DNA of 64,000 nucleotides. It comes from Synechococcus sp. Its GTDB lineage: Bacteria > Cyanobacteriota > Cyanobacteriia > PCC-6307 > Cyanobiaceae. Made by a program: the position numbers and the translations under genes. Of this stretch, positions 3,445 to 19,208 are shown in pieces. The DNA lies in NCBI GenBank assembly GCA_047284725.1, contig JBJBEO010000001.1, positions 672,001 through 736,000 of the forward strand, written 5' to 3'. The first letter of the stretch is position 1. Each line of letters starts with the position of its first letter. The notes under the pieces were generated by a model, which saw only the letters and a list, made by a program, of their open reading frames with translations, did no database searches and was not told the origin of the DNA.

Positions 3445-3540
3445 GACTCGGACCCATGCGGTCCAGACGCCCAAACCTGGTCAGGACCGGAAGGGAGCAG
3501 CCACACGGGATGCTCTGGGCAGGCGTGGACTCCGGGTCAC
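3445..3540 (+). ncRNA. ffs: Signal recognition particle 4.5S RNA
   Basis: Conserved domain IV sequence GGTCAGGACCGGAAGGGAGCAGCC within a long hairpin with complementary ends; TAGCAT -10-like box at 3432. Confidence 0.93.
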
Positions 3541-3566
3541 CACATTCCCAACGGGCGGTTCGGATG

Positions 3567-10888: not shown

Positions 10889-10962
10889 GGCGAGCGAGGG
10901 GATTCGAACCCCCGAATAGCGGCGCCACAAGCCGCTGCCTTAACCACTTGGCGACGCCCGCC
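10889..10962 (-). tRNA. tRNA-His(GUG)
   Basis: Reverse complement (G)GCGGGCGTCGCCAAGTGGTTAAGGCAGCGGCTTGTGGCGCCGCTATTCGGGGGTTCGAATCCCCTCGCTCGCC; anticodon GTG; G-1 is encoded, full CCA is not. Confidence 0.97.
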
Positions 10963-14083: not shown

Positions 14084-14647
14084 CTAGCAACCAAGACTGT
14101 CGCGGGTCGCCATGCCTGTGTGGGCATTGATGCCCTCGGCATCGCGGCAGAGACGAACGACATCGTCGCGATCCAAGAGGGCTTCGCTGAAGTCAGCCCC
14201 TTCGATTTGCGCACCGGCAAAACTGCTGCCTGAGGCAATCACGCCATTCAGCTGTGCGTTGCGCAGATCCGTGCCGCTGAAATCAGCACGATCCATCAGG
14301 GCATCGGAGAGGTCGGCTCCGTGGAAATCAGCATCCGCGAAGGCTCCCTGGGTGAAGATCGCCCCATGAAGGTCTGCGCCAGAGAAGTTGGCTCCCCTGC
14401 CGACGGCGCCAGCAAAGGATGTGTTGCTCAAGGCCTGATCGTGGAAATCTGCATTGGTTTGATTCGTCAAGGTGTAATCCACCCGTTCCTGGAACAGCGC
14501 TTTGTCTTGCAGGCCAAAGCCATTGGACGTGTCGAGGGCTGCTGCCGGTTGGAGGCTGCTCCATGGACTGAGTGCCATGGTCAAGGCGACCAAGATGGCG
14601 CCAAGCCAGCGTTTGAGAGCTGTGAGTCGCATGGGGGAGGAGGCCAT
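14084..14647 (-). CDS. Secreted/lumenal pentapeptide repeat protein
   Basis: Signal-peptide-like N-terminus and A(D/N)(F/L)xx repeats; start uncertain (14647 or 14632). Confidence 0.9.
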   Translation of the reverse strand: MASSPMRLTALKRWLGAILVALTMALSPWSSLQPAAALDTSNGFGLQDKALFQERVDYTLTNQTNADFHDQALSNTSFAGAVGRGANFSGADLHGAIFTQGAFADADFHGADLSDALMDRADFSGTDLRNAQLNGVIASGSSFAGAQIEGADFSEALLDRDDVVRLCRDAEGINAHTGMATRDSLGC

Positions 14648-14785
14648 GGCGATGGACGTATGTCGATCATCACTCTGCCGGGCATGGGCCTGCTGCAGCG
14701 CTGACGTTGCGATCACGGTGTGGATCACCTGGGTAACTGGCCTGGTGGGAGGGTTGCGCCATCAGGTTCGATGGCTATTTTTATT

Positions 14786-14878
14786 GTGTGAGGAGTTGAA
14801 CTCTTCAGTGGAGTGGAAACAAGGCAACACGCCCACATGAGTTCATGAAAAGCCCTGCCTTCGGCGGGGCTTTTTTTT
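14786..14878 (+). ncRNA. yfr2: Yfr2-family small RNA
   Basis: 5' GTGTGAGGAG; stem TGAACTC/GAGTTCA with GTGG/CCAC closing a GGAAACAAGGCAACAC apical region; intrinsic terminator GCCCTGCC-TTC-GGCGGGGC-T8; TATTTT just upstream. Confidence 0.82.
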
Positions 14879-14933
14879 CTGGATCAGTGCTCGCAGATTG
14901 CGGAAAAACACAGCACACAACCAACGACAGCGC

Positions 14934-15002
14934 AAAAAAAGGGGCCTGACGGCCCCTCGGGGGGTGTGAGGAGACCAACTTCGTGTGAGGAGAGTTGATC
15001 CA
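14934..15002 (-). ncRNA. Yfr1/Yfr10-like small RNA with two CUCCUCACAC motifs
   Basis: Reverse complement GATCAACT-CTCCTCACACGA-AGTTGGTC-TCCTCACAC-CCCCCGA-GGGGCC-GTCA-GGCCCC-T7: 5' hairpin, motif linker, terminator. Confidence 0.75.
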
Positions 15003-15042
15003 CCCCATTGCTAGCCCCCTTTGCAGCACTTTGGGTGGCTAG

Positions 15043-16314
15043 TTACATCAGGTCATTGATCAGGGGCAGGGCTGGACCTGGTTGGAGTGTGTTCTGCTTC
15101 AGCAGGTGGCCAATCAGGTACAAGGAACCTGCGATGACCGGAGCAGCGGCAGGCCATCCCTGCTGCTCCAGGCATCTCAACACCTGTTCCACGGCATCGC
15201 TCTCTGGGCAGGGTGGCTGGATTGCTGGCAGAGCATGAAGCTGACCGGCCCACGAGGCGTCTGATCGAACCAATTGAGCGCGGGTCCAGCTGCGGTGGCC
15301 CGGTACGGGCACGATCCAGGCCTGATCTTGAGGCTTCAGCAAAGACCGCAGCATCGCCGGCGCTTGCTTGTGGGCCTGAATCCCCAGGATCCAGGTGATG
15401 CCAGTGGATTGGTGGGGCCAGTGATGGCGTTCCCTCGCCAGGGCGTCTGCCGCTGGTGGGTTATGGGCTCCATCGATCAACACAGGCTTGGTCTGCCATT
15501 GCGTGCTTTGAAGACGCCCTGGCCATCGGGCTGCGGCAAGACCCTCGCGAATGCTGGTGTCGGTGATGCTCCAACCCAGGCGGCCAACCTGTTCCAACAC
15601 GGCTTTGGCCACAGCGGCGTTGCTGCGTTGCACATTGCCGGCAAGTCCCAGGTGCCAGCTGCTGTCAAGGGGATCGACCCAGTACAGCTGAGCCCCCTTC
15701 TGCGCACATTCCTGTGCAAACACTGCGGACACTTCGTTCACCTGGTGACCGCTGATCACCGTGGCCCCAGGCGTGATCGCGGCTGCTTTTTCCCGTGCGA
15801 CTGCCGTCAAACTGTTTCCCAGGTGTTCGCAGTGGTCGAGTCCGATCGACGCCACAGCAAGGATCGGACGATTGGAATGGGCTGTGGTGGCATCGAGTCG
15901 GCCACCGAGGCCTGCCTCCAGCACGAGCCACTCCAGCTTTGCCTGCTCGAAATGCACGAGGGCTGCCGTCATCAGACGTTCGAAGGGGGTGAGGACCTCG
16001 CTCTCGGCCAGTGGTTGCAAATCTTCCAGGCGCTGACGAAGCTCCTCGCTGCTGATCTGAGTGGAGCCAACGCGGATGCGTTCGGTCCAGTCCATCAGGT
16101 GTGGAGAGGTGGTGATGCCGCTGCGGATGCCGGCATGCACCATGGCGCTGTGGACGAAGCTGGCGATCGAGCCTTTGCCATTGGTCCCCACCACCTGGAC
16201 GGCCGGCACCGACTTGCACGGATGGTGGAGAGCGTTCAGGGCCCGTTGCATGCGTTCCAGGCTGAGATCCATGCCCCGTTGCTCAAACGGAGGCAGAAGA
16301 TCGCTGAAGTTCAT
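15043..16314 (-). CDS. folC: Folylpolyglutamate synthase/dihydrofolate synthase
   Basis: VVGTNGKGS, TSPHL, EAGLGGRLDAT, WPGRLQ and DGAHN motifs; start MNFSDL overlaps the argD stop. Confidence 0.95.
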   Translation of the reverse strand: MNFSDLLPPFEQRGMDLSLERMQRALNALHHPCKSVPAVQVVGTNGKGSIASFVHSAMVHAGIRSGITTSPHLMDWTERIRVGSTQISSEELRQRLEDLQPLAESEVLTPFERLMTAALVHFEQAKLEWLVLEAGLGGRLDATTAHSNRPILAVASIGLDHCEHLGNSLTAVAREKAAAITPGATVISGHQVNEVSAVFAQECAQKGAQLYWVDPLDSSWHLGLAGNVQRSNAAVAKAVLEQVGRLGWSITDTSIREGLAAARWPGRLQSTQWQTKPVLIDGAHNPPAADALARERHHWPHQSTGITWILGIQAHKQAPAMLRSLLKPQDQAWIVPVPGHRSWTRAQLVRSDASWAGQLHALPAIQPPCPESDAVEQVLRCLEQQGWPAAAPVIAGSLYLIGHLLKQNTLQPGPALPLINDLM

Positions 16315-17495
16315 GCGCTCAGGCTTGCCAGGGCGGCATCCAGTCGTTCGAGCAAGATGTTCACTTCCCGGCGTGAGATCACCAGGGGGGGCACCATCCG
16401 CACCACCTTGGGGCCCGCTGGTACCAGCAACAAGCGGTGGTTCAGGGCTGCTTTCACGACATCGAGGGCTGCCAGGGGGGCGTCGTCCTTTAGCACCACC
16501 CCTTGCAGTAGCCCCCAGCCTCGCACCGCCATCAGCATCTGGGGATAGCGCTCCACCAGGGTCTTCAGGCCGAGTCGCAATTGATCGCCACGCTGTTGAA
16601 CGTTGTCGAGCAGGTTGCGGCGTTGGAGTTCGCACGCAACGGTGAGGCCGGCTCGGCAGGCGAAAGGGTTGCCGCCAAAGGTGCTCGCGTGGTCACCGGG
16701 AACAAAGTGATCCGCCTTCGTTTTCACCAGCAGAGCACCGATCGCATGGCCTCCTCCAAGGCCCTTCGCGAGGGTGAAGGCGTCGGGTTCAACTCCGAGT
16801 TGTTCGTACCCCCACAGGCTGCCGCTCCTGCCCATGCCCACCTGCACTTCATCAAAGATCAGCAGGATGTTGCGGTCGTCACAGTGCCGGCGGATTGCGC
16901 GAAACACGGCGGGATTGCCGGGATTTACACCGCCTTCGCCCTGGAGAGGCTCGATCAGCACTGCCGCGACGCGAGGCCCATTCGCTTCCATGCGATTGAG
17001 CAGGGTCTCGAACGAGGAAAGATCGTTGTAAGTGAACGTCTCGAACCCTGCAACCATCGGTTCAAAGCCTTGGTGGTAGCGGGGTTGCCCTGTGGCGCTG
17101 ACCGCCGCGAGGGTGCGGCCATGAAAGCTGGCTTGAGCCGTGAGAATCACCGGACGGTCGATGCTTCGCACGGTGTGGCCATGCTTGCGTGCCAACTTGA
17201 TTGCGGCTTCGTTGGCTTCCGCTCCGGAATTGCAGAAAAAAACGCTGTCGGCACAGCTGTGATGCACAAGCCAGCTGGCCAGTTCGATCTGTTCAGGAAT
17301 CTCATAGAGATTCGAGACGTGCTGAAGACGGCGCAGCTGTCGCGTGAGGGCTTGTCTCATCGCAGCATCGCTGTGCCCCAGTGTGCAGGTGGCAATCCCT
17401 GCCACAGCATCGAGATATCGGGTGCCTTTCTCGTCCTTGACCCAGCAGCCTCTGCCTCGGGTGAGGGTGAGGGGAAAACGCCCGTAGGTCCCCAT
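16311..17495 (-). CDS. argD: Acetylornithine aminotransferase
   Basis: FCNSGAEANEAAIKLAR, FHGRT, IFDEVQVGMGRSG, AKGLGGG and STFGGNP motifs; start MGTYG just downstream of the tRNA. Confidence 0.93.
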   Translation of the reverse strand: MGTYGRFPLTLTRGRGCWVKDEKGTRYLDAVAGIATCTLGHSDAAMRQALTRQLRRLQHVSNLYEIPEQIELASWLVHHSCADSVFFCNSGAEANEAAIKLARKHGHTVRSIDRPVILTAQASFHGRTLAAVSATGQPRYHQGFEPMVAGFETFTYNDLSSFETLLNRMEANGPRVAAVLIEPLQGEGGVNPGNPAVFRAIRRHCDDRNILLIFDEVQVGMGRSGSLWGYEQLGVEPDAFTLAKGLGGGHAIGALLVKTKADHFVPGDHASTFGGNPFACRAGLTVACELQRRNLLDNVQQRGDQLRLGLKTLVERYPQMLMAVRGWGLLQGVVLKDDAPLAALDVVKAALNHRLLLVPAGPKVVRMVPPLVISRREVNILLERLDAALASLSA

Positions 17496-17508: not shown

Positions 17509-17591
17509 TGGGAGCCGGGGGACTTGAACCCCCAAGACCAGTGGCCGGCTGATTTTGAGTCAGCTGCGTCTACCAATTCCGCCAGGCTCCC
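17509..17591 (-). tRNA. tRNA-Leu(CAA)
   Basis: Reverse complement begins GGGAGCCTGGCGGAATTGGTAGACGCAGCTGACTCAAAATCAGCC and ends GGTTCAAGTCCCC..GGCTCCCA; anticodon CAA, long variable arm. Confidence 0.96.
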
Positions 17592-19124: not shown

Positions 19125-19208
19125 GCGGATGTGGCGGAATTGGTAGACGCGCTAGTTTCAGGTACTAGTGGCAGCAATGTCGTGGGAGTTCAAGTCTCCC
19201 CATCCGCA
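19125..19208 (+). tRNA. tRNA-Leu(CAG)
   Basis: GCGGATGTGGCGGAATTGGTAGACGCGCTAGTTTCAGGTACTAGTGGCAGCAATGTCGTGGGAGTTCAAGTCTCCCCATCCGCA; anticodon CAG. Confidence 0.96.

Follow-up and report, generated by a model that had tools for sequence, protein, structure and literature searches.

To our knowledge, the interplay of Yfr1, Yfr2 and Yfr10 is the best-studied RNA-RNA antagonism in marine picocyanobacteria, with nearly all of the work done in Prochlorococcus MED4. The Yfr1 motif was seen upstream of Yfr2 and Yfr5 in MED4 by Voss et al. 2007 (PMC2190773). Steglich et al. 2008 (PMC2518516) named Yfr10, Yfr12 and Yfr18, which adjoin Yfr2, Yfr4 and Yfr5 on the same strand, described a joint Yfr10-Yfr2 precursor of 270 nt and suggested that pairing occurs with the 5' end of Yfr2. 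Lambrecht et al. 2019 (PMC6778093), who combined pull-down with GFP reporter, primer extension and RNase E assays, reported that Yfr2 of MED4 binds and blocks Yfr1 and Yfr10; Yfr2 relieves Yfr1 repression in the GFP reporter, and bound Yfr2 is protected from RNase E. The same paper places the Yfr10 homologues of high-light Prochlorococcus upstream of Yfr2 homologues, where proximity may enhance the interaction, assigns to MED4 Yfr10 its own set of several hundred targets, and records a Yfr10-like RNA detected by northern blot in Synechococcus WH8102. A probe for this WH8102 RNA gave one 2-mismatch match in the genus genomes, to unrelated coding-like sequence, and four exact matches in genome contigs, all of them non-cyanobacterial. 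The original prediction for the locus described below was of a Yfr2 RNA lying beside, and pairing with, an RNA that carries the complementary motif; such an arrangement is already in print for Prochlorococcus (PMC2190773, PMC2518516, PMC6778093). Its core inference, a small RNA and a complementary partner encoded as one small unit, holds as far as the sequence can indicate, as an instance of a published principle. For marine Synechococcus, neither an RNA with two motifs nor Yfr2 pairs on opposite strands were found described in the literature, a body of work in which subscription journals were thinly covered.

How does the Synechococcus locus compare with these systems? The genome is a single contig of 2,581,549 bases with 59.4% G+C, and the window, the whole 64,000-nt stretch of DNA that was analysed, comprises its positions 672001-736000 (coordinates are those of the window unless given as genome positions). 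The locus is the spacer between a pentapeptide-repeat protein gene (14084..14728, - strand; PF00805, 79.5 bits) and folC (15043..16260, - strand, stop at 15043; TIGR01499, 261.8 bits), and these are the two neighbours that had been named. The long folC frame has no match with Pfam alone, and a frame on the strand opposite folC (15274-16548) has no family match. The three + strand copies of GTGTGAGGAG are exact at 14786, 14964 and 14983, with no others in the 64-kb window; shuffled sequence contains a mean of 0.16 matches, and three were reached in 1 of 100 shuffles. Both strands of the whole genome together hold seven copies, three in this spacer, one within the canonical Yfr1 gene, another where a second Cyano-1 gene has its 5' end, and two elsewhere. 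Exact copies at genome positions 1054729 (+) and 1995893 (-) lie outside the window and outside every match to Cyano-1, Yfr1 or the R2 model described below. On the - strand CUCCUCACAC is read twice, 19 nt apart, as the double motif proposed for the - RNA. Moreover, a consensus scan detected both opposed terminators of the original prediction, at 14857-14870 (+) with a T run (T8) to 14878 and at 14958-14939 (-) with a T run down to 14934, and the predicted + and - RNAs do not overlap, their 3' ends being separated by ~55 nt.

The + strand gene (14786..14878) is a Yfr2 homologue. The Rfam Cyano-1 model (RF01701) matches 14782-14848 (+) over model positions 1-69 of 69 with 57.4 bits, above the gathering score of 41, which agrees with the family assignment made from the letters alone, and a terminator-like hairpin completes the gene. 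The RNA opens with GUGUGAGGAG as an unpaired 5' end, continues with a stem-loop whose loop is GGAAACAAGG, and closes with the terminator. GUGUGAGGAG is the anti-motif at the Yfr2 5' end (14786..14795, +), identified from sequence and motif count, and it falls among the first 14 positions of the Cyano-1 model, all of which are unpaired. The consensus alignment and the unpaired-probability track show the unpaired 5' GUGAGGAG and the GGAAACAAGG-type loop to be present in the + RNA, for which we infer a 5' start at ~14786. Comparison with the Yfr2 family of Prochlorococcus MED4 (Yfr2-5; RF01701) reveals no essential difference, as the 5' GUGAGGAG, the GGAAACAAGG loop and the terminator are the same and the family is multicopy here as well, with three matches in the genome, the two further ones scoring 44.9 and 37.3 bits.

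The - strand gene (14934..15005) encodes a double-seed, Yfr10-like RNA that is delimited by a covariance model (R2, 87 bits at 14935-15005; the one member in this genome), the terminator, the minimum free energy (MFE) fold and covariation. Its 5' part is a hairpin, AUCAAC/GUUGGU, with CUCCUCACAC inside the loop (motif 1, 14983..14992, -, placed by fold and alignment). In its 3' part the other CUCCUCACAC lies in an unpaired linker ahead of the terminator (motif 2, 14964..14973, -), followed by a C run and a GC hairpin with a U7 terminator. Is this RNA an additional copy of yfr1, as had been proposed? The canonical Yfr1 gene was found where the original prediction placed it, at guaB-trxA, with an IMPDH gene on one side and a thioredoxin gene on the other (genome 882414-882473; RF01116, 61.4 bits), and it is the sole RF01116 gene found in the genome search. 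The - RNA, however, lies between folC and the pentapeptide gene and not at guaB-trxA, and no Rfam Yfr1 (RF01116) match occurs in 14650-15150 at E up to 10, a scan that gave only chance-level matches besides Cyano-1. Rfam Yfr10 (RF02362) likewise has 0 matches genome-wide at E <= 10. The absence of a covariance-model match had been named beforehand as grounds for refutation, and for the - RNA the Rfam check found neither Yfr1 nor Yfr10 at E up to 10. For this reason we regard the - RNA as a separate, genus-restricted family rather than an extra yfr1. What stands of the claim is that a - strand RNA displays the Yfr1 motif, in a conserved and structured gene with a covarying hairpin around motif 1.

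The family seems related in design to both known RNA types, with motif 1 presented as in Yfr10 and motif 2 as in Yfr1. As in Yfr1 (RF01116), a ACUCCUCACAC-type motif is single-stranded between two stem-loops, here as UCUCCUCACAC with U and not A as its first base, and motif 2 together with the C run and GC terminator nearly matches the 3' half of the genome's own Yfr1. The - RNA differs from Yfr1 in its 5' hairpin, which itself bears a motif, and in the lack of guaB-trxA synteny; moreover, the R2 model gives canonical Yfr1 only 26 bits as against 87 for the - RNA. As in Yfr10 (Yfr10, Yfr12 and Yfr18 of MED4; RF02362), the Yfr1 motif sits in a loop atop a stem, motif 1 being exposed at the apex of a stem with covariation in 6 of its 7 pairs, which fits the definition of Yfr10 as worded in PMC6778093, and the gene is likewise encoded beside a Yfr2 homologue, ~55 nt from the Yfr2 3' end in this case. 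In contrast to Yfr10, the - RNA has a second, linker-borne motif and no RF02362 match at E up to 10, and it is encoded on the strand opposite Yfr2, whereas MED4 Yfr10 is described as lying upstream on the same strand and sharing a 270-nt precursor with Yfr2.

Among 41 genus genomes, a DNA search recovered the complete cassette from a few and the Yfr2 portion from most. Homologues of the - RNA were located by scanning the fetched loci for an 8-nt core, the exact double 10-mer pattern being too strict (matches in 3 of 301 family genomes). Sixteen fetched loci contain two CUCCUCAC copies, 17-21 nt apart, followed on the same strand by an ACACC-type sequence and a terminator and preceded by a -10-like box, many of them also by a TTGACT- or TTGAAT-like box. 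Fifteen of these homologues were folded singly, with L034 left out as lacking a terminator, and in all 15 a 5' stem encloses motif 1, a terminator hairpin forms, and motif 2 lies between the two. In several MFE folds the motif edges are paired, that of motif 2 with an arbitrary 5' leader, a result that depends on the assumed 5' end. A MAFFT alignment of the 15 homologues placed the 5' stems wrongly, and model-guided alignments were used instead. The first covariance model was built from the six closest sequences with the structure given by hand, and R2 was rebuilt from 18 matches of that model. In the R2 alignment of 18 sequences, which was fitted to the model structure and is biased in favour of it, 96.1% of cells are standard pairs, changes on both sides occur in 12 of 14 pairs (6 of 7 per helix), and the observed covariation score was equalled by 0 of 500 shuffles; sliding the partner columns by 1-3 lowers pairing to 27-62%. 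The one loop motif is carried on clearly different stems (GAUCAAC/GUUGAUC, AGUUGG/CCAACU, GGCCAA/UUGGCU and GUCAA/UUGAC), at least three of the stem sequences around motif 1 being unrelated. Motif 2 is nearly invariant among homologues, and motif 1 is changed in a few copies to CUCAUCAC, CUUCUCAC or CUCCUGAC. The - RNA therefore belongs to a conserved structured family in which one CUCCUCAC occupies a covarying hairpin loop and the other is single-stranded before the terminator.

Within the genus, 38 of 46 genomes have an R2 match at E <= 0.001 and 8 have none, the best match reaches E <= 4e-12 in 35, and many genomes carry 3-6 copies. Three of the 46 have matches of 37-44 bits that extend over ~65 nt only and are presumed to be Yfr1 cross-matches. 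Under stricter filters (E <= 1e-7, completeness of at least 90%), a sample of 141 family genomes contained the family in 7 of 8 genomes of the genus and in 1 of 132 genomes from 35 other genera, at 45.6 bits, such that it is almost absent from the other genera sampled. Viral contigs gave no sign of phage-borne copies: 44 viral loci fit a loose double-motif pattern, and they lack the hairpin-terminator layout or lie in high-GC or coding-like contexts, with a best R2 score of 24.3 bits. Three viral contigs with 36% G+C (L091, L114 and L117) share an identical GUUU-CUCCUCAC-GGCG-AAAC followed by CUCCUCACAC, with no clear terminator and 24.3 bits, which is possibly a low-GC relative or chance.

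The double-seed family is tightly linked to Yfr2. Linkage was assessed by an Rfam scan of the loci that hold the best R2 match of each of 30 genomes. Among these loci, which are the top scorers of a model trained on Yfr2-linked copies, 29 of 30 have a Cyano-1 gene above cut-off, the exception being L074, and 29 of 30 have two exact CUCCUCAC copies. The two genes stand head to head with 78-79 nt between the model 5' ends in 22 of the 29 linked loci; one further locus is head to head at 450 nt, and six, the window locus included, are tail to tail. Since the best loci favour the Yfr2-linked training copies, all R2 matches of at least 48 bits in five complete genomes were compared with all Cyano-1 matches. 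Fifteen of these 21 R2 matches stand head to head with Cyano-1 at 76-83 nt, four lie 322-451 nt from it and two are unlinked. The original prediction of a single cassette is thus upheld in that the two genes occur together in 29 of 30 best loci, while the tail-to-tail order on which it was based is a minority form (6 of 29).

All six tail-to-tail loci lie in the folC-pentapeptide spacer, and a seventh syntenic locus, L015, from a 78%-complete assembly, has Yfr2 only. In 5 of 5 other genomes of the genus, which have head-to-head pairs at other sites, folC adjoins the pentapeptide gene without the motif. Because the convergent loci are all found in one subclade and the spacer is empty in 5 of 5 of these other genomes, both genes were gained jointly at folC in that subclade. 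The tail-to-tail arrangement is accordingly an insertion that brought in both genes at once and is specific to the subclade, and the synteny check across the genus that had been suggested places the pair in this one syntenic spacer.

The Yfr2 5' end and both seeds of the - RNA are complementary in sequence, each seed being able to form ten perfect base pairs with it. The local duplex is -23.5 kcal/mol at site 1, where it is extended by GUUGA:UCAAC over a 2-nt bulge, and -21.1 kcal/mol at site 2. When the two RNAs are cofolded, it is motif 2 that pairs with the Yfr2 5' end, for a gain of -9.7 kcal/mol, and the gain for Yfr2 with canonical Yfr1 is larger, at -19.9 kcal/mol. The energy of the whole-length duplex is no better than that of shuffled sequences (322 of 500 as low), a measure that ignores intramolecular structure and is dominated by GC-rich terminators, and it was disregarded.

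We hypothesize, with a probability of roughly 0.7, that the spacer holds two convergent sRNA genes, one for Yfr2 and one for a ~70-nt genus-restricted double-seed RNA, which would titrate each other as in MED4. The mechanism is carried over by analogy from Prochlorococcus MED4 as the most likely one, and we infer transcription, intracellular pairing of the RNAs and the effect on regulation. In this mechanism the Yfr2 5' end would pair with either seed of the - RNA, and such pairing would keep the seed-bearing RNA off its mRNA targets. The seed-bearing RNA would reciprocally occupy Yfr2, so that the ratio of the two RNAs would set the output. With its two seeds, a single molecule could bind a pair of Yfr2 RNAs, or a Yfr2 and an mRNA at once.

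An alternative hypothesis is that the adjacency of the genes reflects shared history or transcriptional control with no dedicated sponge pair, such that the - RNA would act through its two seeds chiefly as an mRNA repressor, redundant with Yfr1, and each of the three Yfr2 copies would titrate it equally well. There are features of this genome that would allow for it: the seed of the - RNA is identical to that of canonical Yfr1, the anti-motif core is found in all three Yfr2 copies, and two of those three have no double-seed neighbour. Moreover, only about half of the 32 Cyano-1 genes above cut-off in the five complete genomes have an R2 partner, and the several hundred targets reported for MED4 Yfr10 (PMC6778093) are its own. 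However, 22 loci keep the same 78-79 nt spacing and both genes arrived jointly at folC, two observations that suggest selection acting on the pair as one unit, and the authors of the MED4 study suggest in PMC6778093 that proximity enhances the interaction. We consider the absence of a dedicated pair possible, if rather doubtful.

A second question is whether the - strand element is a gene in its own right, which brings in the control regions of the locus. The consensus scan found no sigma-70-type promoter on either strand. Read from the sequence, a putative -10-like TAGCAAT (15007..15013, -) lies upstream of the - RNA, within the 38-nt spacer past the folC stop, and takes the form TA-N4-T in homologues. 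From promoter-like sequence and terminators, transcript lengths of ~93 nt (+) and ~69-70 nt (-) are plausible. A third hairpin, absent from the original prediction and listed as terminator-like by the consensus scan, is a perfect inverted repeat with 6 bp arms, GCCATC-AGGTTC-GATGGC (14758..14775, +), that abuts the Yfr2 -10-like TATTTT (14776-14781); it could be an operator rather than a terminator. A similar TGCC-N6-GGCA is seen just upstream of the genome's second Yfr2 copy.

The cassette sequence is present in an RNA library. Contigs of metatranscriptome run X6, from which strand, transcript ends and abundance are not readable, cover 14843-14876, 14935-15002 and 14973-15069. The contig over 14935-15002 is joined to the Yfr2 terminator via a different 26-nt spacer and is therefore from a related strain. 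The contig over 14973-15069 (97 nt) has no differences and extends from the end of folC into the element, in a library that may contain DNA. Contigs of runs X1, X2 and X5 represent parts of the flanking genes only, and absent cover proves nothing.

The element could on this basis be read as a folC 3' UTR or terminator with two Yfr2-binding sites, through which Yfr2 would act on folC mRNA or from which an sRNA would be cut. Its start, ~38 nt past the folC stop on the same strand in 6 of 6 convergent loci, would suit such a tail, as would the poor -35 region of the - RNA in this genome and the 97-nt contig. However, contigs cannot reveal transcript ends, the family is found at many divergent loci with clear TTGACT- or TTGAAT-like -35 elements and a conserved -10-like box, that box is conserved in the convergent loci as well, and folC lacks such a tail in 5 of 5 other genus genomes. 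We therefore judge this reading unlikely. Still less credible, to the point that it can be set aside, is the proposal that the two downstream GTGTGAGGAG copies are decayed + strand Yfr2 5' fragments or a chance repeat with no - strand RNA: Yfr2 does begin with this motif at its 5' end and is encoded by several gene copies, but the hairpin and T run read as a terminator on the - strand only, neither a GGAAACA loop nor a Cyano-1 match follows the downstream copies, the - strand structure covaries, and the element is kept in 35 of 46 genus genomes.

What is new here is a family of the Synechococcus genus that is missing from Rfam and presents two seeds in two structural contexts. It is coupled to Yfr2 in either a head-to-head order, with the distance fixed at 78-79 nt, or a tail-to-tail order, the pair at folC having been acquired jointly. 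One marine Synechococcus genus thus has its own Yfr2 partner family, with two seeds per molecule, strict physical coupling and two architectures. This adds detail to a known principle and establishes no new one. The locus offers a testable handle on stoichiometry (1:1 versus 2:1) and the role of gene proximity in sRNA-sRNA titration, and on how sRNA pairs move in genomes.

The head-to-head control regions of 78-79 nt (L050-L073) are of two sequence types with one palindrome each. The first palindrome, TGGCAC-TG-TGCCA, lies ~20-35 nt upstream of Yfr2, and the second, TCAGT-N7-ACTGA, lies ~40-57 nt upstream of Yfr2 and overlaps the partner's TTGACT -35 box on the other strand; the palindrome of these regions may be the published CGRE1 site. 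Could the two genes form a self-contained, relocatable switch? Such a switch would have the 78-79-nt control region in common, one regulator toggling both the double-seed RNA and Yfr2, the seeds acting as a 2:1 trap or as a bridge between Yfr2 and an mRNA, and a rewired copy at folC. The rationale for one regulator is the overlap between a palindrome and the seed RNA's -35 box, through which a single bound regulator could switch Yfr2 on and its antagonist off. If this were true, the folC copy, with its tail-to-tail order, would have been rewired and freed from the shared control. Taken as a whole, this extended model is tentative and on balance improbable.

Several minor observations accompany these loci. 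A cluster in genome G080 (L026, ~1674.6-1677.7 kb) has three R2 matches and two Cyano-1 genes within ~2 kb, with motif 1 lost from one hairpin copy, and genome G135 has two unlinked R2 copies 250 nt apart. A Glutamine-II riboswitch (L058, 354-413, -; genome G037) and the end of a cyanobacterial tmRNA gene (L068, 2977-3070, -; genome G286) each lie near a Yfr2 pair. The window itself also contains an SRP RNA gene and three tRNA genes, all ordinary, at 3445-3541 (+), 10889-10961 (-), 17509-17591 (-) and 19125-19208 (+).
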